Shown: positions 12,408 through 64,000 of the stretch, piece by piece
Layout of the letters: every line of letters starts with the position of its first letter
Numbering within the stretch: position 1 is the first letter of the stretch
NCBI GenBank assembly: GCA_036172245.1
Contig: JAYWIR010000029.1
Coordinates: 2,790,001-2,854,000, forward strand
DNA from: Raillietiella orientalis
Taxonomy: Eukaryota
Length of the DNA stretch: 64,000 nt
Direction: 5' to 3'
The notes under the pieces: model-generated
Told to the model about the DNA's origin: nothing
The model's database searches: none
Seen by the model: only the letters and a program-made list of their open reading frames with translations
Position numbers and translations under genes: made by a program

Positions 12408-12479
12408 GCTGCCTCTCACGCCACCACGAACACCTGCAAGCCTCCGCAGGTCTCGCTCACCGCTCGCACACTGACAGTG

Positions 12480-13287: not shown

Positions 13288-13336
<49 letters not shown>

Positions 13337-19990: not shown

Positions 19991-22494
19991 TCGAGAGAAC
20001 TGACCCGTGAGGATCGAACGGGGTGAACGCGCGTTTTTTGCTGTGTGTTCCCCTTTTTTTTTGGCTTCTTGCATTATTAGACCAGCCCGCCTCTAGTCGG
20101 ACTGGGGAGTAACAGTAGAAAGACAGGGAAACGAACGCTGGAAGCAGTCGATGGTTCCCGTTCAGGTCAAAAGAGCGTCCAGAGAGTGCGTGGGGGACTC
20201 CTGAGGAAACCCGGGCTTCCGAACTTCCCTGTCTGTCTTTAACAGTGCGCGCCCGCAAGCAGCGCAAGGTCTGCGCTCCGACGCCTCGCTTCCGTGGCAG
20301 CGAGCTCCATGCGAAGAGCAACGCCTGCGGCAAGGAGCAGGTGGAAGAAGGGTTGATGAGTGGTGGGCGGCTTGCCTTTTCCTTTTCGTATGCTGGTCGC
20401 TCCGGCGTCACCCGCCGCGTGTGGCCGTGCCTCGCGCGATGCGGCCCGCGACAAACGTCCTCCCCCCCCCCCGTTTCCAGGGTACTTCTACTCCAGGGCG
20501 TGGGCGTTATCTGCGCTCCAAAAATAAAAGAGCCAGATGACAACAAGAACGCGTTTCTGAACTACGTCGGAGGGTGAAGATTACTGTTACGTCGGACACG
20601 TGTTTGCCGCATGACCTATCCTGCTGATATCTGAGCAGCCTGGACTTCGTCGGCAGTGGACTCCCGAGTCCGACGCACGCGATCGATTTTGGGATCTTGC
20701 CCATCCCGGGGGCCGTAAGCGGCACGATAGCGTGTCCGGATATGGACTCTCAGGAAAGATAAGAAGCTGCTTGGCAGTCTGAGTCCTCCAGGCACTGACC
20801 GATTCGGAGACGTCGATTCCGGCGATTCGAGGTCTCCGGACAACGAGTTGTTAGTGGCTCAACTGGTTGAACGAAAAGTTTGAGTGCCAATGGCGGGAGT
20901 CACGTAGGGTACGAAATGAGCGGGATGATAACGTTACGATGAGAGGCGAAGGAGTCGAATAGCAAGAAGTCCGTCATGATCATTCTGTTACTGGATCGAT
21001 GGCAGTATTTGTGGTGATAGAAAGATGGCTGCAAGACAACTAATGATGGCAAAGTAGAGGAGAGTAATTAGTCAGTATGTGGGGGTATTAAGAGTACAAC
21101 TGAACCGGTCGTTCTTGAATTTTCTATAGTAATTGTAACCTGACAATTTGTTGTTGTTGTTGAACTAAAATTCTAGTGCCTGATTACTGTAATTAAGTCG
21201 TGGAGGTTGATGGAATTGGGTTGGATAGGTACTTCGCATCCAGAGTCTCAAACATTGATGCAGCACAGTCGAGAAGAGGGAGGAGAAAGAGTTGAAGGCG
21301 ATCACAGTTCTGCTTCTCCACGAGTCGTCGAGGCCGCGTTCAAGGGTAGGACTGCTTTTCTGTGACTTCTTCGCTCGCTTAGGTCATCAGCTGCCGCTTC
21401 GAGGCGCAGCAGCTGGCTGCCGCTCTCGAAATCGGAAAGTGGAGAGGGGAAACGAAGATGGTTTCCATGGTGAGGGAGCAAGGCTGTTTCCGAGACTCGG
21501 CGGCGAGGCTCCCCGCTCGAGACGGAGAGGCAGCATCTCACCGGCGCCATCCTTTCACCCACGTGCGCGCACCCGCGTCAGCGAAAAGACTGAACCGGGA
21601 GGCGGTCACACCTTTTTTCGAGGCATTTTCACTGCTTCTCGAAGGCAACGCGCGTAGGGACCTCCGCGTCCGGTGGTTCCCATCCCTTCAGCGTGCTGTT
21701 CGCAGCACGGTGCAACAGGTGGGGAACGCGAGATGCTTTGGCCGTTTAGCTCGACACCGAGGACAATTCCGTCCCGGTTCGGGCACAGGATAGGAGGAGG
21801 AGAAGAAGACAGGCAGAAAATCGGCGCTTTTTGGTCCCCGAAACCGCCGCGGCTCCAGGATTACGTGCTATCAGACGAGACTACCACTTTGAAGAGGCTC
21901 CTGGTAAATGGGTGCACCGGTTGCCATCTTGGTCCGGTATATTCGTCGTTGCTGTTATCAGCTTATCAGAGCACTTCAGGACGCGGGTGCTGAAAGGCAC
22001 CTGGCATTCGGATGACCATTTCTTAAACCTCATCGATGTGCGTTCCACGTTTCCTACCAGAATTTCTGTGATACTGGTTCAAGAATTAAAAGGATAGAGG
22101 TTGACTGGATGATTCTGGCTGATTCAAGAGGGACTGCGAGTGAACTGTCGAGCAGCTTCTCCTGACATGGCTGCAGTTTGGATAAGAAGAACGCTCGCCC
22201 TTGGAACCGCCGTTAGCAAATATTCAGGAGCTGCTGGCTATTGCAAGAATAAATCTCGAGCCAGACCCGATCCAGGTATCATTCCGGCAGGTAGTTGCCT
22301 TGACAATTGGTTTCCGGGTAAGGGGCTTTCCGGTCCAGCCACTGTTGGCAAGTTCTCTATTCTCAAGCACATTCCTCTGACTACGGCAACTCCTCGATAA
22401 TGAAGACGGATTTCCAAGAAAAAAACCATTCCCTAGGATGATGAGAATCCTTTTGAATTCTTCTGTTTTCCTTCCAGCTGTTGATCCCAGGTTT

Positions 22495-23236
22495 TCCATT
22501 CGCCAAGTGGTGAAGAAACGCTCGCCTCCTTGCGAGGGATACACGAAACTCTTTGACACGTGAATATGCCACCCTAAGATGTGTGCAGCTCTTTATCAAG
22601 TTATAGGGGGTACCCCGGAAGGGGAACACCCTATGAATTCCGGAGGTTACCGGAGGAAGGAGTCATTTCCCTATCTTACGCTTGGGAGGACGGAACCTCT
22701 TCCTTGTTCTTTGTTCCCTCTGGAGGGACTCCCCAGAGGAAGCCTCTCCTCGTTCCTTCTTCGGAGGGACCCTAAAAAAAGATTCGCTCCTAGCTTCCAC
22801 CTCTGTAGGGAACCCCGAAGGGACACTTCTCAATTTTCTTCGAAGGGTCGCTCCCAAGGGGAGCAGCTCACTTCTTCATACTCTGGAGAGGCAACATTCC
22901 ACCAGCTCCACGGCACGCCATGGAGGATCCCCCCAAGGGTGGACAGCTCCATTGAACAACCGAAGGGAAAACTCGAAGGTAAGCGGCTCCTTGGTTTCCG
23001 AAATGACCCTGGAGAGCCAACTTCCCATCCCGGCCACTCAACGGAGGCATCCGGGAGGTCCCAAACTCCAACGGTGCTGCATCCGAAGCCGAAAGGCTAA
23101 CCAGCGTCCTCTTGCGGAGGAGACTCGAAGCCCACGATGCACTCATTTCTTGGAGTCGCTCCATCCCCGTACGGGACTCGAACCCGCGACGCTCGGTGCC
23201 GCGCGCGCGGAGACCGCAGCCACGCGGCCTCCAACG
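22495..23236 (-). mobile_element. Long tRNA-headed SINE-like element, copy A (near full length)
   Basis: Minus strand has A-box-like TGGCTGCGGT and a perfect B-box GGTTCGAGTCC; body collinear with 35905-37085 and 63214-63985. Confidence 0.8.
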
Positions 23237-23869
23237 TGGGGCTTCATTTCCACTGCTGCAGGAGCTCCCCGCTTCCAGCCGAACGAAGGGATGCTTCGTT
23301 CCGATGCCTTTGCTCACCGATCTCTCGGGAGGGAAAAAAAGAAAATGAAACCACCGAGTGCCTTTTTTCCTCCTGCATTCGAGACCGACGGGATCTCCCT
23401 GTCGGGAGCTCTCACGCCTTCACTCACGGGAAGATTTATATCCCCTTATCCGATACGGCGAGGGGAGAGAGCGAGCGAAGCGTAGAGAGAGAGAGAGAAA
23501 GGAACAGAATCCTCCTAGCAAGATTTTTGAGCTTCCACCTTCCCTCAATGCAGCAGGAAGCGCACCTGAGATTGGCTCGTGCAGACAGCGGGAACGACCC
23601 GTCCTGAATGGGGCCCAAAGATTCGCGCAACCCCCTCGTCGGAGCACCCGTTTCCCCCCTAACTCCCTTACGTCGCACGTCGCGGTCACCTTCCCACCCG
23701 CCCGTCGCCTACGCACGCGCTCTTCCAATCCGTTCAGGGAGGAGAAGCCGACCCGGTAGGTGCGGAGGGCGCGTGGAAATGCTGCTGGTCCCGCGGATAG
23801 CCATCCGAGAACCCCACGCACTTTCCCAGGAAAAGCCGACAATCACCTTCGCCCGCAGTTCCAGATGGC

Positions 23870-26500: not shown

Positions 26501-27210
26501 TCGCGCTCGAGGTTGCCTCATGGCGAAGCCTGAACACAAAAATCTGGTTGTGCTTTTATGTGCCTTGAGCATCTGGCGACCGTACATCCAGGTCGACAAA
26601 GCCGAAAGCCAAGTTACTTCCGTAAAGTTCCATTTTCATCCTTCTCGCAACGATGCTGCCTAGCAAGATCATGACTAACCACCTGCTTGCAAAGTGGTTC
26701 CAGGGGGACTCTACTAGCCGAAGCGGTTCCGAAGGGACTTTTTTGGAGCGCTGAACACCAGACCGTGCAGTGCACGGTCGCTGCTGCTTCCTCGTTTATG
26801 CCCTCTTATCCTCAGCCATCCAGAGTCATTCCGATCTCAACTGGCATCTAAATTTCATCTCAGTGGGTACCATCTGAAAACCCGCTTCCAGATGGCATGA
26901 CTTTTTCAAAATATACATTCTCCCTGTACCAACTGCGGATCCCATTTTAAGAGCGAGAGGCCACACCTCACCGTCCCTCTTGAGAACAGACCCATCTTTA
27001 TTCTCGATTTCCAACATGAAACTCTTTGACTCTTCGGGCTGCCGATCGGTTCCCACACTTGCCTATCTCAGGTTCTGCTCTTCTGCATCTTTTCTTTGAT
27101 CCGTTAATGGATGTCTCCATTCGAACTCCGGTCACCTCGGAGATAGTAGGTAACTGCAAAGAATGAAGCTCTTCTTTTCATCCCGCCTCTCCTGCATGTG
27201 TAACATGTGA

Positions 27211-27925
27211 CAGATGGTGAACCGTGCCTGGACAAGACGTAGCCAGGGGCGACTCTGATGGAGGTCCAAAGAGTCTGAAAAGGCCATGAGAACTGGATGT
27301 GGGACGGAAGATGAATGGAATCATCTGATAGCTGGTCTCCTTCGGGACAGCTAGCGCTCGTCGAAGCAGAAGGGGTATAGGGAGTCCCATCGGGTGAAAC
27401 GAATGATCAGAAAAGCCTTGGGACCGAAATGACCTTGAGCTGTTTAAAATGGGTATGGAATCCGGCTTCTTCTAGAGCTGAAGCTCAGACGAGCATCGAC
27501 TTCTCCCAGTGGTTCTTTGGTAACCAGGATGAACCAAACACGTTGGGTTATGGCTCCCGATGCGATGCTCATCAGCTCCCATGAGAGGTGTCGGTTGTTA
27601 TGGGCAGCAGGACAGTGGCCGTGGAAGTCGGAATCCGGCAAGGAGTGCGTAGCCACAGCCTGCCGAGGCAACCGTTCCTGCCGATGGGCGGCGTCGAAAA
27701 ATCAAAAGCGCTCCCAACTGCCCAACCGAGCCCCATCACTACTCTGAAGTTCCGCAGTCAGGGGAAGGGGAACAGCGTAAGACGCTTCGGAGGGTGTATG
27801 GGTAACGGCGGCGCAAATGCAGCAGAGTGGTCTGGGAGCGACTTCCCAGACCACCCTGCTGCACGGGCACCATTCGGCAGCAGACCTCGCCTCCGCTGGA
27901 GCAGAACTTGGTGGCAGACACTCTA
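27211..27925 (+). pseudogene. Degenerate 28S rRNA fragment
   Basis: Collinear blocks matching conserved LSU rRNA: AGATGGTGAACCGTGCCTGG, CATCTGATAGCTGG, GAATGATCAG, GGATGAACCAAAC, GCTCATCAG, CAGCAGGACAGTGGCCGTGGAAGTCGGAATCCG..AAGGAGTGCGTA, GCAGAACTTGGTGG; many substitutions and deletions. Confidence 0.9.
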
Positions 27926-28059
27926 GCGGGGATCCTGGAGGTCTGACGTTCAGGAGGGTTGACGCCAGCTATGACGCCAGCTTCTGAGAATAATTCAGTC
28001 TGCTCCAAGTTCAGGCTGCAGAGTGTTCGAGACAGAGTGTTCACGATGTGACGTCAAGA

Positions 28060-30279: not shown

Positions 30280-31080
30280 GTCGCGGAAACACCATACGCT
30301 GGTTGGACCACGAGCCAGCTCACAGGCTCTGCTACCCCAAGTGCTCCGCTGAAAGGACTATTGCGCTGGGGCAAGCTGCTGGGAATCCCACAGGAAGACC
30401 TCGACGTGGCAGGAGTCGTCACTTCTACTGTTGCACTGGGGTCTCCCGTGCAACGCCCGCTTGTCTCACTGGACCTGGGAGGCCTTAAACCTTAACTGTT
30501 GCAGTTGTGAGAAACGGGGATCCCAGTTTCCCCACCTGCTTGTAGGCTGTGTTGCCCTCCTGTCCCTGTGGTTGCGTTACTGCAACGGCCCTTATTGCAC
30601 CAACGGACAATCCAGGGACACAATGAAGTACCTTTTCGTGCGCTATGTCCTTCCGCCTGCCGCATCCTTAGCAGCTCTTTGCTGCCTACGTGGGATTGTG
30701 GTTGTCTGCAGTTATGCGAGAGGAGGACGGCGCGATAGGGACACCATATGCTTCGCCCTGAGCTTCCTGCGGACGGTAGCGAGATGGTCTCAACTGGGGA
30801 TACTCGGATGGAACTTTCCCGCACTCTGGAAAGGATGCAGAGGACGCCCTCCAGCGGGCAGTGATCCTTTTCCTAACCTTCCCAATTTTTTGCATGCATT
30901 TTTTTGTTTTATCTTTATTTCTGTTTGCTCCCTCCTCCTCCGCTGCCGAAGAGAAACTCTCTGACTTGCGTGCCGGTTACTCGTCAGGTTCTGAGCATTT
31001 TCGGACAATATAGGGTCGATGGCTCTACACATGTCTGTTTATTTTTTATAATAAACGTCCCGGTGTGACCAGGTGATAAA
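30280..31080 (+). mobile_element. Tx1/L1-like LINE 3' end
   Basis: 'LHWGLPCNARL...CCSCEKRGSQFPHLLVGCVALLSLW' (zf-RVT CCHC), T-rich UTR, then AATAAACGTCCCGGTGTGACCAGG. Confidence 0.75.
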
Positions 31081-32370: not shown

Positions 32371-32479
32371 TCAATTTGGATGCAGCGGCAACAGGAGCAG
32401 AGAGAAATATGATGGAAATCCTTTTGGGGTTCTTCTGTTGCCTTCCAGCTTTTCCCTTTTTCTGGTTTTCTTTTTTTGG

Positions 32480-33290
32480 CTCTCTAAGTGCTGAAGAACA
32501 GTTCGCCAAATTACAGGGTGCCCACGAAGCTCTTTAACGCTGAAGAATCCGCTCCACCAGAGGGTGCGCGTAATTCTTCTTCGAGTTATAGAGAGCATTC
32601 CGGGAGGGGGATCACCCTATGAAACCAGAAAGGCTCCGAAAGAAGGAGTCCTTTCCTCTGAGGGGCTACACAGTCCACAGTCCTAACACAGTCCCCTATT
32701 AGGTATGGGAGAGATTCCCGTTCCCCGCATTCTGCGACAGTCCGGGCTCGCCCTCTCCAGCGTCCAGTGATGTCGGCGTGCACTGCAAGGAAGAACCCAG
32801 CTTAACAGCAGCAGAAGTGCCAGCCCCTGCCACTCCATGAGGAGAGCGTTGCTGTTCCTGAGCACTGGGAGGCACTCCAGTTCTCCTTTAGGAATACCCG
32901 GCAGCTCGTCCCAGCGCTGTAGTCCTCGTGGATGGGCACTCGGGGTCGCTGCCCCAGGCATGGTTGGTTGGTTGTCTCCGAAGGGAACCTTGAATGGAAC
33001 CTCTTCATTATTCTATCCGGAGGGACTTCCGGAGGTGGCCACTCCTCTTCTCCGAAGGGAACCAGGAAAGGCTACACTCCTTGTTCCCTCCTCGGAAAAA
33101 AAACCACGAAGGGACGCTCCCAAGGTTCCCTGGAAGGAGACTCCCGAAGGAAACAGTGCACTTCTTGACACTCCCGAGAGGCAAACGCCGAGGAAGGTAT
33201 CAACCAGCTTCATGGTACCTCCTCTCCCTCTTCGCAGCCGGAGGGGAACCCCGAAGGGAACCAGCGCTCCTTGGTTTGTGGAAAAAACCT
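32480..33290 (-). mobile_element. SINE-like element copy D (no clear head), interrupted by a LINE fragment
   Basis: 32500-32665 is the reverse complement of the family 3' end with an A-rich tail; 32976-33290 matches the body. Confidence 0.75.
32666..32975 (-). mobile_element. Internal Tx1-like fragment nested in SINE copy D
   Basis: Encodes 'AECGERESLPYLIGDCV'; nucleotide similarity to 30300-30560 and 58000-58290. Confidence 0.7.
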
Positions 33291-33419
33291 CGGAGGAGGA
33301 AAGTCTCCACGGATCTCTTGAAGACTTTCCTTCTGTTGAGGACGAGGAATAAGAGAATCCTCGGCAACCGACGAACGGACGTGAAGACGCTGCGTTCCCA
33401 GACCACAGTCGAGGGGATT

Positions 33420-34930
33420 AGGGGAGTCATCCGGGAAGCTTCGCTCCCTCGCTTCAAGAGCTCTTCCACCTAGTTGGCCCACGGAAGCTTTTGCCTAGCA
33501 CCGGAGTGGAGCAAACGGGGTTCTGCTGCACGGGTAGAATGACCCTCGGCCCTGCTGACTGCCGAGCACTACCGCTGCTCCACTTTCTAGCCAGTGTCGC
33601 TTGAAGAGTGCTAGGAAACTGGGCATTTGTGGCTCCCCAGGAATCTTCGAGAGCCAAGAGGTGCCCCTTCCTAATCTCTCGGTTCCAGGACGTGGTTTCC
33701 GTATTGGAGAGAAAGGATAAGCGGGAGCTACGGCATCAAAGCATTTTTGCCTCGTGGGCACCACTTCCCCTTCAAGGTTTCCTGCCAAAAGCTTCAGACG
33801 GGTTTTCCGGTTCCTCCGGGACGTCCATCCCACCCCACCACCCGCTGCTCACAGAACGGCATTCCTCCGGATCGCGCGAGTAAGCAAAGGGCAGGAACAA
33901 CGGACCGGAGAGTTTCTTCCGGACCAGATGATTTTTTATTTATTCTTTTATTTTCTTTTTGTTTTCTCCCAGTCCCTTTCCGGGAGCTAGAAGACGGGAA
34001 ATCATGGGGCCGCAGGAGCAGGGACATTCTCGATTTCTTCTTTCCTTGGGACCGGCCGGAAGTGGAAGTCGGTCCTCCAAAGTGCTTCCAGGGATCAAGG
34101 AGCTGTCCATCGAGTACCATGAACCCGGTTTATACCCCCCTCTGAGGGTCGCCTCTTACAAGGTGATCCGCAGTCCTAGATTTTCCTGCCCTCACATTAA
34201 CCCTCGGGGCACGGCGGCGATCCGTCTGGAGTCCGTCTTCCTCCCGCGCACGTGCCAACTTCAGCAGGACAGCCCTCGAGTTTGCTACCCTTCCTCATCT
34301 TCCTCAATCCTGGAACCTATCAAAGATCCGGGGGATGCTGGAGGGGGGGGGGGCAGTCCTGGCAGAGTGAGGGGAACGGGAATCCCTCCCACACCTGATA
34401 GGGGACTGTGTTGCCCTCCGGCCCCCATGAGAACGTTTTGGAACGACCCTTTCGATCCCAGCTGGCAACTCCAGGGACGTTTTACGGCTCCTCTTTGTGC
34501 GGGACGCCCTGCGGCCAGCCGCAGCTCAAGCAGCACTATGCAGCATTTGCGGGATTGCGGCGGCCTGGAGCAAAACCGACAGGGGGGAACGCCGTCCAGA
34601 GCGCAGTTCGCTTTCTGCGGATGGCGTCCGGATGGCCCCAATCGGGACCTATTCGGATGGACCCAGCTGGCATCCTGGAAAGGATGCAGACTCCCTCCAG
34701 TGGGACAGTGGTCCCTTCCTGACCCTCCCAAAGATTTTTATTTATTCTTTTATTTTCTTTTTGTTTTCTCCCAGTCCCTTTCGCTGCCGAGGTGACCCCT
34801 GCCGGTCTGTGCACCGGCGACCCGGCAGGTCCAAGGACAAACGGAGTGTGGTGGGAAGGACCACGTGTCCTGACGCAATTTATAAGTTTCTTTTCAATTT
34901 TAAAAAACGCCCCGGCGTGTCCGGGTGGAA
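33420..34930 (+). mobile_element. Tx1/L1-like LINE 3' portion
   Basis: 'GERESLPHLIGDCVALRP' at about 34371-34424; 3'UTR homologous to 30830-31080; terminal CGCCCCGGCGTGTCCGGG. The 5' boundary is uncertain. Confidence 0.7.
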
Positions 34931-35610
34931 ATCGAAGGTTCCTGGGATCGGGTTTGTTTACATGTTTGTTAAAAGCAGGATGCACGGGAACGCCGTGCCG
35001 CGACTGTTCTCTGGAGACTGAGCTTCCGGCACGATTGTTGCGAGCGGAAGTGGGGAGAAGGTGCAGCCCGCGGGAGGGCATCCCACTACAAGACTTTCCT
35101 CTCAAAGGAAGTCTTTCACACAAGTGCGGATTCACTCCCGCTTAGGTCAATGGCTCGATAACGGACAGGTCTGCAGGGCAAGTCTCACCACTGCACGGGG
35201 AAATCTTCTGTCCATCCCGTCCATCTCGGAGCAAGGCCACCTTCTAGATCTGTGGGTAGTCGCGACAACTTCCAGGAGGGGCACCCGTCGCGACCCTAAG
35301 CATTCTCGCCAACACGGTCGTCGCGTGGACACCTCCAGGTCTCTCTTGAGGTGGGTGAGAGAACTCTGCAAGCGATGGACCATAGGGCGTCTTCAGCGGC
35401 AATCTGAGCTACAGAAGAAAAGAGCCTCTTCTCGTTCCGAGGACTGGAGGTTGTGTCTCTGTCGGGATGCTTTCCTTCCTGTCCGGAGCAAGGACGCGTC
35501 AGGTACTAACGTGCAAGAAGAAAATCGCGCTCATTATACGGAGCAGGTCCCCCCTTCTTAGGGATATCGTACGGCCGTGGATTACCATGGTGAATTCGCT
35601 TCCTGCCTTG

Positions 35611-35890
35611 CGTTGACGGCCGAGTGGCTGCGGTCCGTGCGCGCTACCCAGCGTTGAAGGTTCGAATCCCGACGTGAGGAATCGACGTCGGGAAATGGGT
35701 ACGTCGTGAGTTCCAGTTCCCGCCGCAAGATGACGCTGGTTCGGCCATGGGCTTCGCTCGCGGCACTGCTGGAAGCCGGAAATCCCTGAACGGCCCGTTG
35801 ACTGACCGGGATTGCCTCCAGGGTCCTTCCAAGAATCGAGGAGTCCTTCGAGGCTCCCCTCCGGTTGTGAAGAGGGAGCTGCACCAAGAA
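35611..35890 (+). mobile_element. SINE-like element copy B (5' part only)
   Basis: CGTTGACGGCCGAGTGGCTGCGGTC..GGTTCGAATCCC head plus first ~200 nt of the body. Confidence 0.75.
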
Positions 35891-35904
35891 TCTGGTGCAG
35901 CCCG

Positions 35905-37085
35905 CGTCGGAGGCCTTGTGGTTAAGGCTTCCGGGTGTGGCACCATGCGTCGCGGGTTCGAATACTTCGGCAGAAACTCTGACGGCACTGCGTCGTCGAG
36001 TTCCGAGTTTCTCCTGCAATGGCGCTGGTTGGCCGAGACATTCGGGCGTGGCACCGGAGGTGGATTAAGCCAGAGGCCCCCGATGAAGGCCGGAACAATG
36101 GAAAATTGACCTTCGGGTCTTCCCAGGAATAAAGGAGTGGGGATTTCCCCTCCGGTCGTACAACGGAGAGCGGAACCCTCCCCCCCAGGGACCCCTCCGG
36201 TTTCAAGATGGAGAAGGAGCCCTCACGGGCACCTCTCCAGTTGTTCAAAGGAGCGGACACTCCCCGTTGCGGGGGGGGACCTCCGAGTCGTCGCCTCTTC
36301 ACAGAGTGCACAAGGAAGCAAGCGAGAGCGATTCCCTGCGGGAAGCTACAGCGCCCCTTCTGAGTTTCGGAAGCGTCCCTTCGGGGTTCTCTTCAGAGGA
36401 GTGAACAAGGAGTGGTTCCCTTGAGGGTTCCCTCCGGAGAAGAAATTCCTACAAGCGGATCCTTTCCGGGTTCCCTTCGGAGAAGAAAAAATGGAGAGGA
36501 CCACCCTCCTCCCAGGGGGTGTCCCTCCGGAGAGAATGAGGAAGGAGATTCCCTTCGGGGTTACCCTTCGGAGACAACTAGGGTTTTTAAAGAAATAAAA
36601 AAAAAAAAAAAAAAATCTGGTCGACACCCTCTTCGGGGCTGCTTCTTCGTAGTATCAGGAAGTGAGCCGCTCCCTTCGCGAAGCTCCCTTCAGGGAAACT
36701 TGGAAGTGCCCCTCCAGATTCTCTTCAGAGGAGTGACAAGGAGCGGTTCCTTTCCGGGGGGTCCCTCAGGAGAAGAAATGAGTTCCTTCCTCCACTCTGG
36801 AGAGTCCTCCGGAAAGATCAAGGAAGAGGTTCCGTTCGGGGTTCGCTCCCAAGCGTGAGAGAGGAACGGAATCCTTTCTCCCAAGCCTTCCTGGATTCAT
36901 TGGGTGGTCCCCGAAAGGGGAATGCCCCATGAACGTTCCCTCCCAGTGGTCCCCTCCCTATAACTTGAAGGAGAGTTACTCGCACCCTCGGGTGGCGTGG
37001 GCAACGTCAAAGAGCTTCGTGAGTCCCCCGAAAGGAGGCAAACGGATCTTCGGTACTGGAAGGAAAAAAAAAAAAAAAAAAAAAA
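35905..37085 (+). mobile_element. SINE-like element copy C with internal duplication and poly(A) tail
   Basis: Head with GGTTCGAATAC; body with TTCTCTTCAGAGGAGTGA repeated at ~36387 and ~36719; family 3' end followed by an A-run at about 37064-37085. Confidence 0.8.
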
Positions 37086-37399
37086 GAAAAGAACACTGGA
37101 AAAAAAAAAAACCGTAAGCGACAGCGAGACGGAAAAGAACTCCGAAAGGTTTCCATCAGCCTTTCCACGGTGCCCGGTCGAATATTCGGGTTCCAGGGAG
37201 AGAAGGGGGAACCTGCGGTGCTCCGATCGGCTGCTGGAGCTCAAGGACACCCGTGTTCACCCCACAGTCGGTCGGCCGGCGTGTCCGCTGCCGACTTCGA
37301 GCCTTGGTTTTCGGAAAAACCGGACGCCCGAGGCCCGAGCGGGCAAGGCGGCGGCAGCTGGTGCGGAAGGAACCGAAATTCTTAAGCGATTGGGAAGGA

Positions 37400-38020
37400 T
37401 AGCGCACGAGAGCACCGGCGAAGAACGAAGTCTCTGTCTTGTCCCTGGACGTGTCTTATGGACGGCGCCCGCGTTGGCGAAGTGGATGGCTCTGAGGCCT
37501 CCTTCACGGACCATATCCGGGCGGGGCTTTCCGGTCCTCGCAGGGCTGACGGTGGTACTGGCACTTGCAATTATTGATGGCCAGCCGCAACAGTAAATGT
37601 AGTTATTAGGAGGCGTGGGTGAAGGCCCCGCATCTTTGAGGTCGTCGAGGACCTCGGCGGATTTGCAAGCTTTGGAGAGGCCCTGGAATATCCGTCTTGC
37701 TCACCTCTTTGGAGGATAGGTGAGACCACCTTGAGCAGCAGCTTATCTGCGCTGTACATATCCGAAAGGAAAAGGAGGAGGAGGAGCCTCCAACGCGAGG
37801 AGCTTGCTCTTTCTCAATCCACGGAATCGCTCGAAAGGACGGCGATGCCACCAAGACGACGGCGATGCCACCCTCCACATCACGGGAAAAGCCTCTTAAT
37901 GAAGGGTTTCCTCCACGTGACGAAATTCGAACGTCTCTATCGTCGCGTGCATTTTGTCTCAATATGATGGTCGGCGTCCGCAGGAGCCAATCAGGGGCAG
38001 CACGCCCGAACCCACGACTC
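37400..38020 (-). mobile_element. Decayed LINE AP-endonuclease remnant
   Basis: Collinear 'IETK' (QETK), 'GGIAV', 'CGAFT' (GDFN), 'DRDFVL' (RIDxxL). Confidence 0.45.
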
Positions 38021-45149: not shown

Positions 45150-45559
45150 TGTCTTCCGTTTTTCTCTCTCTTTCTCTCTCTGAAGGGAGCTCCTCGGGGG
45201 CAGCGCTCCTCTTGACATTCCGGAGAGGCAACCCACCGAGGGGGGCATCAATCAGCTACGCGATAGAGGGTCTTCCCCCGCGAGCGATGAGACGGCTCCT
45301 TTGCCCAACCGGAGGGGAATCCCTAAGGGGACCGGCTCCGTGGTTCCTGAACCCCAGAGGGTGGTTGGCTTCCCATCCCGGCTAGTCAGCAAGGGCATCC
45401 GGCTTCCAGCAGCGTGCCGCACCCAGAGCCTGCAGGCCATCCAGGCCTCATTCTGCAGGGAGGACTCGAAACCCACGACGCACCCATTTCTCGGACCCGT
45501 TTCTTTTCCAGTGTGATTCGAACCCGCGACGCTTGACCGCAGCCACAAAGCCGCCGACG
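45150..45559 (-). mobile_element. SINE-like element copy F (5' half)
   Basis: Minus strand GTGGCTGCGGTC..AGCGTCGCGGGTTCGAATCAC head; body collinear with copies A and E. Confidence 0.75.
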
Positions 45560-48500
45560 TGGTCCGCGGACACCGCCTGCTTCGGCGTGCCTCTCACGAT
45601 CCTTGCTCATGGAAGTCGAGTCCCTCTCCAAATCCGCAAGATTCTTAGCAGCCATCCTCAAGGGACGGTGGAACACGTGGACGTAAGAGAGGTCAGACCG
45701 ATCGGATCGTTACATCCTGATCACCGTGGATTCGAAGCCGCTGGAAAAGCGCGTGAAGGTTAAAACGGAGAACCCGGTTCTCTTCTGGTTTGCACGAACG
45801 TGCGGGACTGTAAACACCATGAGCTCAACGTTTGTTTGTTAACAGCTCGTGATTCAATGCGCAGCGAGGATTCTTCTTCTTCCCTGCTTCGCAGAAAACA
45901 ACGAATCGGTGGCAAGGAAGTGCTCCGCGGAATGCAAGTTTTATGATTTCACCGCGTTTCCGTGGGAATTGTTTCGTCTTGACCTGCTGCTGGAAGGTCT
46001 GATGGCTGCCTGAAGAACAGAAGTTCAATTAGGAGACAAAAGAAGACTCGCTGGCTTGAAGAAAAGAGAAAAGAATTTCTGGGTCATTAAAAAAAAAAAA
46101 AGAAAAAAAGAAAGTGCGCTCCTCACGACACGAGAAGCTGGATTGGTGATTGGGAGCCGCCACTCCGGACGCGCAGCGTAAATACAACCGAAGCTTCAGC
46201 AGCGCATCTTTCGGTGTATCAGTTTCGCGTGGGTGCTGGCTGCTATGCGTCCAAGGGCAACCGCCGGGACTACCTGGAAGCTGGTTTCAGAAGCGGAAGA
46301 AAGTTCCGTAGGTTCGTCGCCTTGTCATACGTGGGTGAGCTTTCCTGCGGACGCCCATATCGGTCGGTGGTGTCCGAGTGTCAACATCGCCTCCGCTTTC
46401 ACTTTGCCCCTTCGCGCGATTTCCAGAGAAATGGAAGAAGCCATTTTCACGGGCTGCGGTGGGAGCCGCGACAAATTTTCTCCCCGAGCGCCACGCGCGC
46501 AAGCTGGCCGGCGTCGCCCGCGACGTTGCGTCACGACGGCGACGGCTGGATGTGACTGATCTGGCGGGCCAGGAGAAAACAACTTTCGTTGCTTGGAGAG
46601 GCAGGGAAAACGTTCGGGCGAGAGGAGCGGGTGTGAAGAAGAAGAGGAAGAAGGAGAAATAGACTCGAGAGCGCCACCTGCAGAAGTCGCACGTCTCTCG
46701 AATGCCTCTTTGGCTTCCACCGCCCTCTACTCAAAGACACGGAGGAAGGATGCTGCCGCTGACGCTCGTCATCCCCTGCAAGAAGACTTTTTCTCTTCAT
46801 GGAGCTTTTTCTCCGGATGCAGGAGGATAGAGAACGGGCAAACACACACACAAAAAAAACCGCGATGCAGTTGCTCCTGAGGAAAGTGAATTCGCGCCTC
46901 TTCCTGGAAGGGGCATTCCGAAAAGGAGCCGTAACGATAGAGCAAAGCAGGCGTGCTACCGATGTGATCTTCGAACGAGTCCCGATTGCCCCCAGTGGAG
47001 CCGAGAGCGACCATCTTTCCAGAGTCCCGGCCGGCCTGCTCCTCGGAATCGTGGAAGACGTAAGCGAGGCACTTCTTTCCGGTGCCGGCAGCGTCTGATG
47101 GTGCTCTTGCGCGCTCGCTCTCAGTCCTGGGAAACCCTGATGGCATTCCCCGCGATGTTCGACATTCTCCTTCCTATTCCGTCCGCTTCTCTGCTTGTTT
47201 TCTCCCCGTCCTCTCGCCTTCCTTTTTACGTTCCGAAGGCGCGTCCAGCCCGAGGTCTCCGCAGGTCTCGGAGACCAAGAGGAAGACGTCGTACTCGACT
47301 GCAGCTGGCATCGCGCGCGCGTTCTTATTGGATTCTCCACGGCTGCTCAAGCGCGGATGCCAACAAATTCGCTTGAGGAGATGGATGAGCCTTTTCAGGA
47401 AGAAAAAAAAAAAAAAAAGATGTTTCGAGAATGTCGGGGGATTTTCCTTCCGAGATCGCGGAAGAGCTATCAAGAGGAGCCCGCCGGCATGTGAGTCAGT
47501 CCGGTCGCGCCACGAGATTGTGAATCGGTCGGGGAGAGGCGGGATCTTCCGCTCTCCGTGCTCCATGCGAGATTCATCATCCATTTTTCTAGCATCCAGT
47601 TTTCCGCGTCATATGCTCTCCTATCGTACTCTCTGGCAACAGTTGGCTCACTTTTCAAGGTCGCCCAGTTTTCCCTTCCCCGTTTCGTGCGGGAGTCAGC
47701 TGCCATCTTTTAGTATCTGCACAGTCGAGGGGGATGATTCGTGTAACAGCAAAGAGTGCCTTGCCTTCTCTTGAGAGCCTGGACCAGACTGAATTGCTTT
47801 GGAAGAACGGGAGGAGACGGAATCGCAGCATCCGAGAGGTTTCTCGGAAGGAAGGATCCAGGATACCTCTCGGAAGTTTCGGCGGCGGCAGCTCTGGCTC
47901 TGGCAGATGTGCCTGTTCCTCTAAGTGACCTCCCTCTTTCCCCCTTTGCCCACGTGACTGCTCCGGAGGGAACTTCTCCAGCGTCTGGTTACCGTTGTTG
48001 TTTTTTTTTTTTTTCCACGGCCGGCGAGAACGCTCTCCAGGCGGACCGGCGTGCAGCATCGTGGAGCGTCGGAGGAGCCGAGCAACCGACTGCCCCATGG
48101 TGCGGCAGCTTATCTCCCTCGCGTCTCGCATCCAGCATCCCATCTACGATCGTGCATCCTCGAGCGAAGCCGGTGGCGAGCCATCGATATTTGAGGCACG
48201 CGGGTAGAGGCCTGGGCCCCTCTCGATAGCAGCTCGTACTGAGCGACCCAACTCCCTTTTATCAGCACACCGGGATCATCCTGAGATTAACCCGGTCTCC
48301 AAGCGGACACTTCATCTCTCTTTTCCTCTTTTTTTTTTTTCGTTTTCCTTTTAGAGTAAACCCTGGAGACTTGCGAAATGCCGCGGGGTAATTGAAATTC
48401 TCCCTGCGCGCCCGATTAAGAAATGCTGAGGGACGTGAGGTCGGAGCGCGGTCGAGCAGCTGAGGAGCGTGCATGAGACCGCATCCTTCCCGGAGATCCT

Positions 48501-50663
48501 CCTGAAGGATTTTTCCCGAGACGTCCATTCTTTCGTCAGATTCTTCAAGAGAACCACTCGCTCTGGTTCCATTCTGGCGTTTCCTCCCCCCCCTCTTGCC
48601 TCCCCATGCTGGATCTTCCGAGCTGCACATGATGAAGGGGCGGCGGCTATTCTCAGCGGCAGGGGAGCACCACCTGGAAGATTGCTTTCTGCCGAGGAAT
48701 TGCTGAGCAGAAGATGTGCTCGGGAAGTCATTTGCGGCATGCCGAAGGCAACCGGATGCAGCAGCTTTCCCCTTCGACGGCGCCTACATAGGAGCTAAGG
48801 AGCCCCCCTTCGTGGACCGGCAGTCTGACTCGGACCAACCAATCGGGCATCTGGGTTTCGAGGGAAGGAAGGGAGAGGGGGGCGGTGGCTCTACTCCGCG
48901 TCGCCCGCGATCCCTTCGCGCCGGGCTTCGCGATCCCCTCGAGGGTTTCCCGTCTCTTCGGCTACGGCGAGGACGCACTCCTCGTGAACCCCTCTTCCTC
49001 CTGGACTCCGCCCCATGCCGCAGTCCGTGGGATGCTTCGTCCCTCCCACGGACGAGGCCACCTCGGGACTCACGCCCTAGTGCGCCGCTGGCAGCGTTCC
49101 CGTCGTAGTCCTCCACCGAAAGCAGATCCCACCGGGTCTGCGTTCTCTCGCATCCCCCCCCCCGCCGCCTCCCCCTTCCTCCCTGCCTGTTTTCCGGGTG
49201 TCCTCGCCTCCCTCTCCTCCTTCCGGCATCGTCCTGGCGGGAAGGAGACTCGTTCGCTCCCGCGGCAAAGAACCCGGAAGCAAAGAAGAAACGCCGCCAC
49301 TGGCGTCAAGCAATCCCCCTCCCCTTCTTAACAAAACGGTTGACTGGGAGTTTCGTAGCTCGGTGACGGAGACCGCGGCTGCGCAGTTCCAGTCCCTGCG
49401 ATCCGTCAGTCTGCCGGATCACCGAAGCCACGAATCCCCCAGCCAATCCTCGCATCCGGAACGCCATCTGCAGATCGTTTTCCCTCCCGCCCCCGAGGTC
49501 TGCGACCGGCGCAGCCATTTCTGCTGCAAGAAAAGGAAGGAGGAGAACTCCCGACTCCTCTCACACGCGCACACAGCCTCCGGAACCGTGGCTGACGGAC
49601 TGCTGACGCTGCGGACTGCGCGTTCCCTACCCGCATCTCTCGAGGGATTTCGCAGGCCTTCCAAGGGAGTTCCCATGAGCCCCTTTCTTCCTGGCTTCGA
49701 GGTGGGTGCGTTCTCGAGAGAGAGAGAGGGAGGGAAAAGCGGAGGAGCGGCGCGCACGGGCGTGCCTGAGGCGTCTTCCCGACATCTCCCGCATCAAGAT
49801 CCACCTGTGTCCTTCTCCCCTTAGCTTCCTTCTGCGACCTTTCCTCAGAAAAGGAAAGGCGCCTCCCTTTCCGAAAGAAGGGAAGCAAGGAACGCTTCTC
49901 TTCTCCCGGAAGGGCCTCGGCGGGAACGCTAAGTCCCGGGGTGAGGCTGAAGAGGTCTGCCACTCGTCTCCGCCGAGGCAGAGGCGGCGCCCACGGGTTT
50001 CCTCCATCGGCTCGCTCCTCCGCTTTCGTAGGCAACCGGATCCCGGCGCGCGTCCCTAATCCAAGCTGGTGCACGGGCGCCGCAGTGCCTCGGAATCCCC
50101 GCGTGCAGGAGCGCCACTTGTGAACGCAGGTGCTCCTGCATCCCCCCCCCCTCTCTCTCTTAAGGGGAGGCGCTCCTCTCGAGTTCAGATGAAAGGGAGA
50201 GAAGAGGGAGGAGGAAGGGAAGGAAGGAAGGCAAAAACCAGGGAAAAGGAAAGGAAGTGACCCTTTCCCCATCTGCGGCCTTCCTCCACCTCCCACGAAC
50301 TTCGGGTCGGGACAGCCACGACAAGAAGCAGATCTTCGGGGACCCCAAATGGAACCGAAACAGCGCCCCGCTAAGGAGGAGTGGGGTCCCTTGCTCCTCG
50401 CAGCCTCCCCCCCCCCCCCGAGGTCTGAGCATCTGGACGATCTCTCCGGGTAGGCAGTCCTAGAGAGGAATAACCGAAAAGGCAAGTAGCATTGCTGGCT
50501 GCTTACTCGCTGTCGTACGAACCCCAGCCTCGGGGCTGACCCCCCTGAGAGGGCAGGAAGGGCCGAGAGGGATGCAGTAGCAGCTCCACGGGACGATTGC
50601 ATGGATGAGAGAGTCCCTTGACCCCGCTGTGGAAAGGGGAAAGACCCATCCATAAATTTCGTT

Positions 50664-50669
50664 TTTATT
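50664..50669 (-). terminator. Candidate polyadenylation signal for ZIP copy 2
   Basis: AATAAA on the minus strand in a short AT-rich patch about 240 nt after the stop codon. Confidence 0.4.
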
Positions 50670-50909
50670 TTTTTAATTTTTTTGCCGCCTCCACTCAGCA
50701 GCCGGGGTAGTTCTCGGGGCTCGTCGGAAGAGACGTTTCCGGAGCACGGAAGAAGACTTTTCGCGGCAGGCATTTTCTCCTGGGTGGCGCGCGAGGTTCC
50801 CCCTAGGCAAAGACTCGCCACGTGTCTGCTGCTGCTGCTCTTTCTCCTCTGCCGCCCCTCTTCTTCGACGTCCCCGCTACACATGGCCGGAGGGGCAGAG
50901 GGTTCTTTC

Positions 50910-52082
50910 TCACGCCAGCCCGTGTCCATGGTCGTCTGCGCGGAGGCTCTCGTGAGCTAGGTGGCTCCCATGATCTTCGTGGATGAACCCTCTCAGGAGG
51001 CACATGAGCACGAAACCGACGAAGGTTGCCAGGAGCTTCAGCAGCCCGGAGACGGGCTTGTTCCTCTCGCTCTCCAGAATTTCGAAGAAGGTAACATAAA
51101 TCAGCGTCCCCGAGGCGGTGCCTTGGAGGAAAGTCAGGGTCATGGAATGCGTCGACCGGTCCGAGAACAGGGACGTCGTCAGGAGCATTGCGAGGCCGAC
51201 GCCTGCGGGACACATGCTCGCGAAGGTGCACATGTACACCATTAGGGTTCTCATCCTGCATCCTTTAGCGCTGATCTCCAGTCCGACACACAGGGCTATC
51301 ACAAACTTGTGGACGCACACGGCCAAGAACAGGTACCAGACTCCCGCCACGGACTCCTGGAGACCCATCGCCATCCCCTCGAAAACGGAATGGAAGGACA
51401 GGGCCAGTATCACGAGCAGGGAACGCAGGCTCGTGATCGCCGCGGGCACATAGTGCCCGTGGCTGTGGGTCGCCTCCTCGCTCCTATCCAGGTCTTCCTC
51501 CATGATGGTCCTGGGCAATGCCCTCTGGGAAAGAGGAGGGGAGAACTCCTCCACGGAGTCGAGGGACGAGAAAGGGTGGAAGGTGAGGGGCAAGACCTTC
51601 TTCCCGCAGTCGGTGATTATCGCATCCTTGGATTGGGACATGCAGTCCACTGCAGTCATGTTCAGGTTGGAGACCACGGACAGTTGCTGCTTCTCCTTGC
51701 GCTTCCTCTGCTTCCTGACCATACCGTGCACGAGCTCTTCGATGAAGTACGTGAAGAAAAAACCGAAGCACATGATCAGTTCCGCGAGAGGAAAGTCATT
51801 GAAAAAACTGAGGTTCGGATCCTGGATGGCCAGGAGGGAGGATTCCCTCACCTCGGGGAGCATGTGGATAAAGCAAGTCGACAGCAGGACCCCTCCTCCG
51901 AAACATAACAAACAGGAAATGATGGTATCGTACTGTCTCTTACGATTCCGCTTTACGCTACCATCGAGGCTTGCAGGTTCCGCACGCAGCAGCCTAGCAA
52001 CTTTGATGGGGAGCAGGCCGAAGAGCAGCGTCAACAAAAGCATCAACACCAGTGCTATGGTTTTCGCAGCGATGAGATTCAT
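50910..52082 (-). CDS. ZIP/SLC39 metal (zinc) transporter, ZIP1-3-like, copy 2, 390 aa, with His-rich C-terminal extension
   Basis: Same motifs as copy 1 (HSVFEG, HKF, GTLIYVTFFEIL), loop 'HSHGH', tail 'HEDHGSHLAHESLRADDHGHGLA'; ATG at 52082. Confidence 0.95.
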   Translation of the reverse strand: MNLIAAKTIALVLMLLLTLLFGLLPIKVARLLRAEPASLDGSVKRNRKRQYDTIISCLLCFGGGVLLSTCFIHMLPEVRESSLLAIQDPNLSFFNDFPLAELIMCFGFFFTYFIEELVHGMVRKQRKRKEKQQLSVVSNLNMTAVDCMSQSKDAIITDCGKKVLPLTFHPFSSLDSVEEFSPPLSQRALPRTIMEEDLDRSEEATHSHGHYVPAAITSLRSLLVILALSFHSVFEGMAMGLQESVAGVWYLFLAVCVHKFVIALCVGLEISAKGCRMRTLMVYMCTFASMCPAGVGLAMLLTTSLFSDRSTHSMTLTFLQGTASGTLIYVTFFEILESERNKPVSGLLKLLATFVGFVLMCLLRGFIHEDHGSHLAHESLRADDHGHGLA

Positions 52083-52962
52083 GCTGCCTCTCACGCCACC
52101 ACGAACACCTGCAAGCCTCCGCAGGCCTCGCTCACCGCTCGCACACTGACAGTGACTTCCTCGTGTTTTCGACATGGGGAGAAGATCACATGATCCGCAC
52201 CATTAGTGGTTTTCGCAGGACGGGGTCGGCGATTAGCAGAATTCGGTCCTCTGCCTCCCGTGCTTGCGACATCGACGGTTCTCGTTCTGCTCTGCTTTGT
52301 TTGTTTTCGCAAATCGGCTGCAAAACCCTTGCGCAGGGCGAGGCGGGCGGGCGGGCGGGTGCGCGCGCGATCGCGTTCCCGGATCGCACGGCTTGCTCGC
52401 CGAGCGAACGCGCCACCGGCCGCGCTGGAGACTGCGAGCGGCGTACGCACGTGCCGAAGCCGGTCGATGGTGGATCGACCACGGGCCGTTTGGCTCGCCC
52501 GCGCCCGCGCGGGTGGTCCCGTCCTCTCGAAGCAGCGGGCGATGGCTTCACGAAGGGTGGCATTTCCGGGTCGAAGGTGCCTTGTCCACGCACGCTTGCC
52601 TCTCTCTCGGCCTGCCGCCTGGTCGTTCGCCCTGGCGACGCCGGTGCTGCCCGGCGTGCTTCCCCGTTTGCTCCGTGCGCTGGCAGCCGATCCCAAACCT
52701 CGCAAAGCCTGGGCTGGGCACTCGAGCGGCGTGGCACGTGATGAACGCGACGCACGCTGCCTCCTTTCGAACCGAGAAAGCGGTTCCCGAAGAGATTGGG
52801 GAAGAAGAGGTTCTTCTGCTCGTACGTTTTCCTGCTCGGCTGGCGTCCGAACGGGCCGGTTGCTCTTCTCGGAGAGCACCTACCGCCGCTGCTTTGCCTT
52901 GTCTTCGAGAAAGAGCACACTCATGTGTAGCCACGCGCCCGGTCCGCTTTCGGCAGCCCTGC

Positions 52963-53011
<49 letters not shown>

Positions 53012-54300
53012 ACTGCTCGTGTTGAGCAGCGCGCGAACGGACGCTGAGAGCTGCGTGGCCGCGGTCGTTGGGAAGCGCCACGGGCGCGTGCGGCGGAGCT
53101 GCCCGCAAGTGGCTCGGAGCGATGGCAACGGGGAGGAAGAGGAGGAGGGACTCGTCCCCGTGGACAGGAAGGAACCCGTGACGACAACGCGCCACGCTTT
53201 CTCGGCGAGCTCAAAGAACAGCACTCCTTGGAACACGCGCACACGCAAAAAAACGTCCGAGTTGGTGCGCGTGCAAGCGTTTCCGTTTCCGTTACTTTGG
53301 TACGGTGGCGCCCCACGGCGCGCGGTGCTCGGGATGCATTCCCGGAGAATAGGCCGTCGTACACGCGTTGCACCAGGCGGCGGCCTCCTCTCATCATCAC
53401 GCACCTGAATTCACGAGCGACTCGCGTTCAGGCTGCAAGTCTTTTGCGCGTGTCCGTCTCGAGCTGCCATTGGTTGCGTCCGTCCCGCTGCAGGTTCAGG
53501 ATGAGGGAGGGATGGGAGCGAGGTGCACGGTGCTAGATGGAACCATTCCCCACAGGTATCTTGAGGAATGGTTCCGCTGGTCGATGCCGGGGCTGTTGCC
53601 GCCATATGCTGCGCAGAGACGCCTCTTTGCAAGGCGTCCCCTCGACAGTTGCCGTGGAAGGCACGCCGATGCCAGGTGGGTCGGGTCCACGGGGTCCCAA
53701 GCGTGTTCGGATCTCACGCTTCGAGCTGGGAGCGTCCACGCACGCGATGCTAAGACTTGCGTCGACGTCCTCTTGAGCCGGCCTCCGATTTCCCGAGTGG
53801 AGCGGCGCGGTGGGTTTCGGGGTGTCTGACCAAGCTGCGCAGCCGTCGGGACTCCGAGGTCGGGCGGAACAGGTTTCTTGCACGGAGGAGGTGGGAAGAC
53901 TTCGGCTCGGCTTAGGTGGAAGGGGTCCGTATTTCTGGAGAGCCCTTTGCTTCCACGAAAGCACCGATGAGTGGGAACGGCGAGGGCGAGGAGGTTTAGG
54001 CAGACGATGCTGTGATCCGACGCAAGCGGCTGTTCTTGCTCTTCTTGAGACAAGTCGGAGGTGGATGAGTGCACGCAAAGAGCGGAGTGGCTTTGGAATG
54101 GAAGGTCTGCTCTCTGAGCTGTCGCGTTGGTGGTTTCTTTCGCTTCTGGCAAAGCGTGCGGAGGTTTCGTTGCCGTTCCTCGTGAAGCATCTTGTAAGTT
54201 CGTGATACTCGGCGCAGGAGTTGTGGAAACTGGAAAGGGGCAATGCATGGGCTCGTCACTCGTAATTGTATTGGTCTTGTAGATAGCTGCCTCCATAGCA
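51701..54300. repeat. 2.6 kb near-identical direct repeat, copy 2 (partner 12026-14625)
   Basis: Direct comparison with copy 1. Confidence 0.98.
52968..53009. repeat. (AG)21 microsatellite, same length as at 13293
   Basis: Read directly from the sequence. Confidence 0.98.
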
Positions 54301-61657: not shown

Positions 61658-61755
61658 CGCTGCCGGCCATGTAGCCACGGTCTCCCCGAGGAAACAAAGC
61701 GTTCCGGGTTCGAATCCCACCCGGTGAAGGGTCGACGCCTAGAAATGGGCACGTT
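61658..61755 (+). mobile_element. SINE-like element head only (copy G)
   Basis: GGCCATGTAGCCACGGTC..GGGTTCGAATCCC..GGTCGACGCCTAGAAATGGGCACGT matches the family head. Confidence 0.65.
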
Positions 61756-63985: not shown

Positions 63986-64000
63986 CGAGTACGGCGCGGA

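Follow-up and report, generated by a model that had tools for sequence, protein, structure and literature searches.

Three of the 138 open reading frames (12 + 126) of 120 aa or more in the eukaryotic 64-kb window, which is the whole stretch of DNA analysed, belong to Pfam families—two ZIP zinc transporters and one F-box protein—and no reverse-transcriptase domain is found among the frames of this length. The window also harbors a family of repeats, of which homologous copies or fragments were recovered at seven places (Table 1) by blastn with positions 35611-37120, by a comparison of the whole window with itself, and by an nhmmer profile made from four copies. The E-values across these copies range from 1e-255 to 3e-12, and beyond the seven places nothing else convincing was detected in the window by these searches. 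All seven had been listed in a first-pass annotation of this DNA and indeed prove homologous, with boundaries that shift slightly. The copies are dispersed over both strands, their 5' flanks are unrelated from copy to copy, and the frames of at least 120 aa that overlap them carry no Pfam family—as in the non-autonomous, non-coding elements classed as SINEs. Pairwise identities between the copies amount to 66–81%, and hence the family is old.

Table 1. Repeat copies, their target-site duplications, and recognizable genes in the 64-kb window
Feature	Position	Strand	Evidence or remark
Outer A-type copy "A", 829 nt	35605-35896 + 36622-37158	+	Interrupted by copy B
Copy A, 5' part	35605-35896	+	nhmmer E 2e-78; collinear with C1, C5, C7
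Copy A, 3' part	36622-37158	+	blastn, self-comparison, copy alignment
Inner B-type copy "B", 717 nt	35897-36613	+	Three nhmmer segments, E 5e-24, 1e-29, 3e-13
Target-site duplication AATCTGGT, 5' copy	35889-35896	+	Direct reading
Target-site duplication AATCTGGT, 3' copy	36614-36621	+	Direct reading
C1, full-length A-type copy, 808 nt	22438-23245	-	nhmmer E 1e-255; alignment
C2, 5'-truncated copy	32409-33295	-	Alignment, self-comparison, nhmmer
C5, head and proximal body only	45177-45562	-	nhmmer E 4.5e-54
F6, head-only fragment	61649-61759	+	nhmmer E 3.4e-12; head alignment
C7, A-type copy, cut by window end	63206-63991	+	nhmmer E 2e-214
ZIP zinc transporter	11298-12527	-	Pfam
ZIP zinc transporter	50913-52202	-	Pfam
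F-box ORF	5876-7366	-	Pfam

A nested pair of copies

The interval 35905-37085 had been read as a single element of 1.18 kb. This reading fails: the interval represents a 717-nt B-type copy (copy B) that has retroposed into an 829-nt A-type copy (copy A), and the length given earlier is too great because the two were merged. In blastn, C1 aligns to 35611-35881 and then to 36640-37051, skipping 35897-36621, and the skipped piece opens with a head of its own. At its 3' end, copy B bears a T5 run at 36584-36588, an AATAAA-like sequence, and a pure poly(A) tract (A17) at 36597-36613. A perfect 8-bp target-site duplication, AATCTGGT, brackets the copy, and when B and one of the duplicates are deleted in silico, A aligns gap-free to C2 across the junction. 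Retroposition of B into A follows from these features taken together.

Among public runs, a single one was found for the stretch, labelled 'DNA?' (share 0.04; here referred to as X1), and no RNA run. Its contigs span 35890-36604, and upstream of 35900 their sequence diverges or is unrelated—which fits an element boundary at this point. In total, 111 X1 contigs lie on the stretch at a likeness of at least 80%, with at most 13 distinct contigs at one position; they show that many copies exist and do not amount to a copy count.

A clear target duplication is found for copy B only. For the A-type copies none is convincing, the best candidate of C1 being a 7-mer located 21 nt off the end of homology and that of A a 5-mer. 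The 5' part of copy A comprises a tRNA-like head, a second T-arm-like motif, and the beginning of a motif-rich body, whereas in its 3' part lie the motif-rich body, an insertion of 30 nt that is private to the copy, the best-conserved 3' domain, A-rich tracts, and a tail of ~50 nt. The 5' truncation of C2 is a hallmark of retroposons. Between its body (33295-32977) and its 3' domain and tail (32681-32409) lie ~295 nt of unrelated sequence that in part is similar to 34333-34412. A palindromic insertion at about 63280-63340 is private to C7.

Promoter-like head and 3' modules

A Pol III-type head with boxes A and B, followed ~50 nt on by a second box B-like motif, had been described before and is visible in the head alignment. 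In all five copies with an intact 5' end, the head with its two boxes lies exactly at this end, which reads G[A/C]AGCCC in B, C1, and C7. Copy A displays a box A-like GGCCGAGTGG at 35618-35627 and the box B GGTTCGAATCC at 35659-35669—a canonical box B/T-arm. The 31 nt between them correspond to a tRNA-like spacing, and equivalents of both boxes are present in the other heads, for copy B at 35910-35921 (box A-like) and 35954-35965 (box B). The second T-arm-like motif (GGGTTTCGAGTCC, GTCGTGGGTTTCGAGTCC) follows ~50 nt downstream in five of the six heads. In the SINE definition, the internal Pol III promoter is formed by these two boxes in 5'-terminal position; the SINEBase paper (PMC3531059) counts them as an indication and not as proof. 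For the head itself, the same paper asks for an identity of 60% or more to tRNA, 5S, or 7SL RNA along a stretch of no less than 60 nt.

ARAGORN at default settings reports no tRNA in the whole window, in the six heads, or in the head consensus, and with -ps likewise nothing in the heads or their consensus. With -ps85, two of the six heads are called versus 27 of 600 shuffles, and with -ps75 a sense-strand tRNA appears at the 5' end of all six versus 179 of 600 shuffles—whereby in both cases the heads are related and do not represent independent trials. Compared with Rfam, the head of C1 reaches 14.3 bits for tRNA-Sec (E 1.5) and 13.4 bits for mascRNA, with an end-to-end alignment and a perfect T-arm, yet below threshold; the heads of A and B give no tRNA match at E ≤ 10. 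Judged from sequence, a tRNA ancestry of the head is plausible but not demonstrated, and the head would presumably be transcribed by Pol III. Runs of four or more T are found neither at consensus positions nor in the 829 nt of copy A, and B bears its terminal T5 alone. A depletion of such runs was considered as a Pol III signature and is uninformative, as chance alone would give each copy about one such run.

The best-conserved part of the element is the 3' domain at 36937-37050, with 80.9% identity to C7 over 115 nt compared with ~68% elsewhere. Copy A has A-rich tracts at 37064-37085 and 37100-37111. In all three A-type copies with an intact 3' end (C1, C2, and A), homology continues for ~50 nt beyond the A-rich tract. 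Hence, this tract is internal, and poly(A) is terminal in B only; the A-rich tail that had been ascribed to the family as a whole stands for copy B and does not for the A-type. The A-type tail terminates in ..AAAAGGATTYCCATCA and that of copy A in ..GGTTTCCATCA, and away from the family copies the tail motif is absent within the window. The 3' ends are modular, as X1 contigs join a B-like body straight to the A-type 3' domain (joints 36500>36976 and 36556>36972).

The eel elements UnaSINE1 and UnaL2 form a 'stringent' SINE–LINE pair that shares its 3' end. Similarly, the part of the A-type that is conserved best lies at the 3' end, together with a specific tail that is not poly(A). However, no LINE with the A-type tail lies in the window, and the predicted 3' stem-loop shows no exceptional stability (z-scores of the 3' hairpin on the sense strand: +1.21, -0.17, -2.41, and +0.54). 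A partner LINE with a common 3' end, as stringent SINEs have it, was found for neither type of copy within the window, in agreement with the first-pass annotation. For copy B, poly(A) and the 8-bp duplication fit poly(A)-primed reverse transcription, and the poly(A)-dependent mobilisation suggested earlier is in line with this copy; the internal position of the A-rich tract makes it doubtful for the A-type.

Tetraloop motifs and the reiterated body

Hairpins with C(UUCG)G and GNRA loops on the sense strand had led to the proposal of a highly structured RNA or a captured structured ncRNA. The body would accordingly be a functional RNA, either captured or with its cUUCGg and GNRA hairpins under selection in master genes, and its fold would serve to make a long Pol III transcript more stable or to recruit the reverse transcriptase. 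The strand asymmetry on which this proposal draws is borne out. Over nine pieces with 4297 nt in total, the sense strand carries 17 CTTCGG and the antisense strand a single one, compared with a mean of 2.40 (sd 1.51) in dinucleotide shuffles, none of which reaches 17 in 1000; the motif hence tracks the orientation of the element. Within the copies, the sense strand holds 3.74 CTTCGG per kb, versus 0.46/kb per strand in the other 59.5 kb of the window. TTCG loops closed by at least 3 bp are likewise in excess on the sense strand (9 versus 1.64 expected, reached by 0 of 1000 shuffles), with 3 versus 2.01 expected on the antisense strand. Of the hairpins named individually, those at 36108, ~36377, ~36551, ~63475, and 36908 are present, whereas the one at ~63637 is imperfect (CCC-TTCG-GAG).

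The nine UUCG hairpins fall on seven alignment sites. Two of these sites are common to two copies each, with decayed forms that differ at CpG, which suggests that the ancestor probably had several CCC-TTCG-GGG hairpins; the other five are private to one copy and argue against a selected structure. So does the GNRA part of the proposal, which is not upheld: such stem-loops occur at chance frequency, with 12 on the sense strand versus 12.7 expected (619 of 1000 shuffles reach 12) and 10 versus 11.1 on the antisense strand, and nine of their ten sites are private to one copy. The leading example among them, TCCCC-GAAA-GGGGA at 36908-36921, sits within ~30 nt that are found in copy A alone and in a region that X1 contigs skip as well.

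The strand-specific CTTCGG excess is best accounted for by the reiteration of a short motif. With one mismatch allowed, CCCTYCGG occurs on the sense versus the antisense strand 12 versus 1 times in C1, 9 versus 4 in A, 11 versus 2 in B, 6 versus 1 in C7, and 8 versus 0 in the body of C2—46 versus 8 in these five copies. The spacings cluster at 13, about 25, and 40–54 nt. Alignment of 44 non-overlapping sites leaves no more than 0.5 bit in the flanks, where 8 columns exceed the control's 99th percentile; owing to this weak flank information, the repeated entity is a core of ~14–16 nt, (GGTT)CCCTYCGG(RG). Most copies of the motif read CCCTYCGGAG, which cannot close a 3-bp stem and hence no stable tetraloop stem.

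Larger units are duplicated as well. Copy B has three tandem units of 40–45 nt at 36147-36279 where the A-type has one, and the alignment scores of the unit pairs beat shuffles in two of three cases (2/500, 0/500, and 50/500). Elsewhere the number of units varies too, as X1 contigs skip 53, 56, 59, 90, or 115 nt within 36399-36522. Tandem Repeats Finder (minimum score 30) yields no clean tandem array in 35000-38000, and a BLAST comparison of single copies with themselves returns almost nothing, as the units are too short and too degenerate; they were therefore analysed by anchoring on CCCTYCGG. The first-pass annotation had allowed for the CTTCGG counts being explained by one reiterated CCT/GAG-rich unit, and this is largely what is found. 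We infer that CTTCGG became frequent through motif reiteration, as a side effect, and not through selection for tetraloop hairpins. Nevertheless, some selection for cUUCGg hairpins may have acted in master copies, as well-formed hairpins on the sense strand are five-fold more frequent than in shuffles (9 versus 1.6).

Folding statistics do not favor a structured RNA either. The z-scores of the minimum free energy for sense/antisense are -2.7/-1.8 for C1, -1.0/-1.6 for A, -2.2/-2.6 for B, and -10.4/-7.8 for C7, and are rough values, based on 20 shuffles each and calculated without control stretches from outside the element. The exceptional value belongs to the copy with the private palindromic insert; the others are small, with the sense strand no better than the antisense strand. 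The covariation terms of RNAalifold are positive, that is unfavourable, for the 3' domain (+1.44, four sequences) as well as for the body (+3.04, five sequences), and the consensus structure leaves out the tetraloop hairpins. For the 3' domain, the pair statistics stay within the range of shuffles: 88.7% versus 86.8% paired cells (25/500), 6 versus 3.6 pairs with double changes (49/500), and a covariation score of 0.245 versus 0.218 (64/500). With only four to five decayed copies the power of these tests is low, because the differences between copies are mostly neutral decay after insertion.

One series of changes does look compensatory: in alignment A2, columns 232/246 pair as C-G, U-G, and U-A across the copies. 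The series lies, however, in CCGG/CCGG arms, where CpG decay on both strands could produce exactly these letters without selection. A search of the copies with Rfam 15 at gathering score gave no match to a family or ribozyme, and scans of the copies by E-value returned noise. An rRNA origin of the body was also considered and dropped, since the copies show no LSU or SSU match; a degenerate eukaryotic LSU rRNA fragment at 27134-28000 is the sole Rfam match at gathering level in the window. With modest z-scores on both strands, unfavourable covariation, and no Rfam match, the description as a highly structured or captured RNA is not supported. No result positively indicates a selected RNA fold, and we regard a functional structured body as improbable.

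Assignment of the family

The copies most probably constitute an old family of long, quasi-oligomeric, tRNA-related SINE-type non-LTR retroposons, non-coding and non-autonomous, in a probably arthropod genome. With 717–829 nt they are shorter than 1 kb, and they are interspersed over seven dispersed places and non-tandem. The hallmarks of retroposition are displayed by B (A17+ and AATCTGGT), while the A-type copies are without a convincing duplication. Hereby, the earlier description of a dispersed, non-coding retroposed family that is oriented by its head and has a Pol III-type 5' end is supported.

According to the arrangement proposed here, an element would start with a tRNA-related head with Pol III boxes A and B and an intact T-arm, followed by the second T-arm-like motif and by a quasi-oligomeric body of ~350 nt, in which (GGTT)CCCTYCGG(RG) recurs 6–12 times on the sense strand and units of 40–55 nt vary in number. 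The 3' module consists of the conserved ~115-nt domain, the internal A-rich tract, and the specific ~50-nt tail in the A-type, and of T5, the AATAAA-like sequence, and poly(A) in the B-type. Copy B would have entered copy A by target-primed reverse transcription, leaving the 8-bp duplication behind. A LINE enzyme is the presumed source of reverse transcription—poly(A)-primed for the B-type and possibly specific to the 3' tail ('stringent') for the A-type. Several observations speak against a SINE: C5 and F6 are without 3' parts and show an unusual polarity of truncation, no tRNA-model score is significant, the length lies above the SINEBase range, and the target duplication is clear for B only.

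The SINE Twin of Culex is reportedly dimeric and tRNA-related. The second T-arm/box B motif ~50 nt downstream of the first is reminiscent of such an organization; however, the resemblance between the two units is limited to ~22 nt of the second, and neither a second box A nor a second cloverleaf is seen. The family also shares features with tRNA-derived SINEs in general: these elements are likewise interspersed, shorter than 1 kb, and non-coding, with a head of box A, box B, and T-arm and a body whose origin is unknown, and here, too, one of the subtypes bears poly(A) together with a target duplication, and subfamilies differ by internal duplications and 3' modules. On the other hand, the present heads score below the thresholds of tRNA models, and the tail that ends the A-type is a specific one and not made of simple repeats. 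In the SINEBase paper (PMC3531059), 175 consensus sequences are listed that span 75–662 nt with a mean of 253, so that 717–829 nt exceeds all of them. The family is ordinary in kind and unusual chiefly by its length.

A precedent for the body may be seen in CHRS, which the SINEBase paper (PMC3531059) calls a quasi-oligomer: a degenerate motif of ~20 nt recurs in it more than 10 times. As in CHRS/CHR-2 by these descriptions, many repeats of a short degenerate motif make up the body, and the repeat number distinguishes variants; yet the motif is centred on CCCTYCGG, the spacing is irregular (13–54 nt), and the host is apparently an arthropod and not a mammal, the two being likened by description only.

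An undescribed arthropod class between SINEs and VNTR composites—longer than 0.7 kb and than any family in the SINEBase table of 2012, with a Pol III head, a functional and expandable array of cUUCGg mini-hairpins, and a 3' module switchable between tail-specific and poly(A) forms—would be a more far-reaching assignment and is unlikely. If it were true, the cUUCGg array in master copies might protect a very long Pol III transcript or load proteins of the partner LINE.

Also improbable is a Pol II-transcribed composite non-autonomous retroposon similar to SVA or LAVA, in which the head would be a passenger and the central array a VNTR. A length above 0.7 kb, the variable number of units in the central region, the modular 3' ends of the X1 contigs, and the AATAAA-like signal directly before the poly(A) of B would all suit such an element, and SVA/LAVA are likewise non-autonomous and modular, with a GC-rich central array of variable unit number and, as in the B-type, poly(A) and a target duplication. 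However, the head with boxes A and B is exactly 5'-terminal in five of five copies, as for an internal Pol III promoter. The lack of T4+ runs at consensus positions points the same way, albeit weakly, with about one per copy expected by chance. The motif of ~14–16 nt with its weak flanks, for which Tandem Repeats Finder detects no array in 35000-38000, does not form a clean VNTR and is far more degenerate than the arrays of SVA/LAVA. SVA and LAVA are Pol II-type elements that contain Alu-like modules as well as SINE-R or L1 modules, and PMC4432496 describes VNTR composites as hominoid-specific. The present family, with its Pol III-type head, does not match the SVA/LAVA build of a clean tandem array with Alu-like 5' and SINE-R/L1 3' modules, and the host proteins point, as a lead only, to Arthropoda and not to a hominoid.

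A DNA-level repeat—a fragment of a DNA transposon or Helitron, or a segmental duplicate—with a chance tRNA pseudogene might be considered in view of the A-type copies without clear target duplications, the copies truncated at the 3' end, and a 3.3-kb segmental duplication in the window, but is very improbable given the full retroposition signature of B (poly(A) and the 8-bp duplication), the unrelated 5' flanks, the lack of terminal inverted repeats (A and B have no inverted self-matches), and the 111 X1 contigs that cover the element only and diverge at its 5' boundary.

For the SINE-type family, two metagenome scans, one for a 30-mer of the B-type and one for a gapped pattern of the A-type 3' domain, gave 0 matches each. 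Word searches of the literature returned general SINE papers, none of them matching the family—whereby a word search cannot find a sequence family. If no catalogue proves to list the family, tRNA-related SINEs would reach a greater maximum length than recorded so far. There would then also be an invertebrate case of a SINE whose quasi-oligomeric body can expand and whose 3' modules can be exchanged, a useful setting for work on how SINEs switch between LINE partners. For annotation, a merged call is corrected to a nested pair, and the locus illustrates that a striking excess of tetraloop motifs can arise from motif reiteration inside a repeat.

Regarding the genes of the window, a 516-aa ORF at 49409-50956 without a Pfam match has no usable match in the Protein Atlas. 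The two ZIP ORFs sit in the 3.3-kb segmental duplication, whose halves are 92.6% identical by self-comparison, and, as a lead only, the ZIP protein resembles the animal ZIP1-3 type. The F-box ORF encodes an F-box/LRR protein whose nearest Protein Atlas cluster is mostly Arthropoda, which is likewise to be taken as a lead only.

Combinations of body and 3' end

In the X1 contigs—assembled from a public sequencing run—that align to 36445–36982, a body resembling that of B, the 717-nt poly(A)-ended copy nested in copy A, runs straight into the A-type 3' domain, with joints at 36500>36976, 36556>36972, and 36445>36886. Hence, the B-like body with an A-type 3' end seems to be the commoner full-length form in the X1 data, and B itself may be a shortened variant.

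An insertion and an unrelated spacer within single copies

The head of C7—an A-type copy cut by the window end—carries a palindromic insertion private to this copy, whose self-complementary match spans 39 nt at 92%. This insertion alone accounts for the C7 folding-energy (MFE) z-score of −10. The two segments of C2, a 5'-truncated copy, are split by ~295 nt foreign to the SINE-like family. An 81-nt piece of this spacer matches 34333–34412 in inverted orientation with 80% identity, so a different repeat family is either inserted in C2 or serves as an alternative module.

Other repeats and reading frames of the window

The four additional repeat pairs represent old dispersed families of 63–73% identity, and none contains an ORF with a Pfam match. 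The direct segmental duplication bears one unbroken ZIP zinc-transporter ORF of ~410 aa per copy, in DNA that is very GC-rich (~61%) and has several frames open. The unbroken F-box/LRR ORF, whose closest Atlas cluster is for the most part arthropod, lies within an AT-rich island of 31–33% GC, against 52–63% in the repeat-rich remainder. An isolated degenerate match to eukaryotic LSU rRNA, with repeats around it, compresses model positions 665–1888 to 867 nt and could be an rRNA pseudogene or repeat material of rDNA origin.

Coordinates of insertions, repeats, and other features in the window
Feature	Position	Partner	Strand	Detail
Dispersed repeat pair	30304–30991	57576–58288
Dispersed repeat pair	30513–30949	34375–34790
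Dispersed repeat pair	34381–34573	57843–58038
Dispersed repeat pair	23634–23791	56439–56592
Direct segmental duplication	11301–14631	50973–54306		3.3 kb, 92.6% identity
F-box/LRR ORF	5876–7366		−	497 aa
LSU rRNA-like fragment	27134–28000		+	115.8 bits
C7 insertion	~63280–63340
C2 spacer	32682–32976
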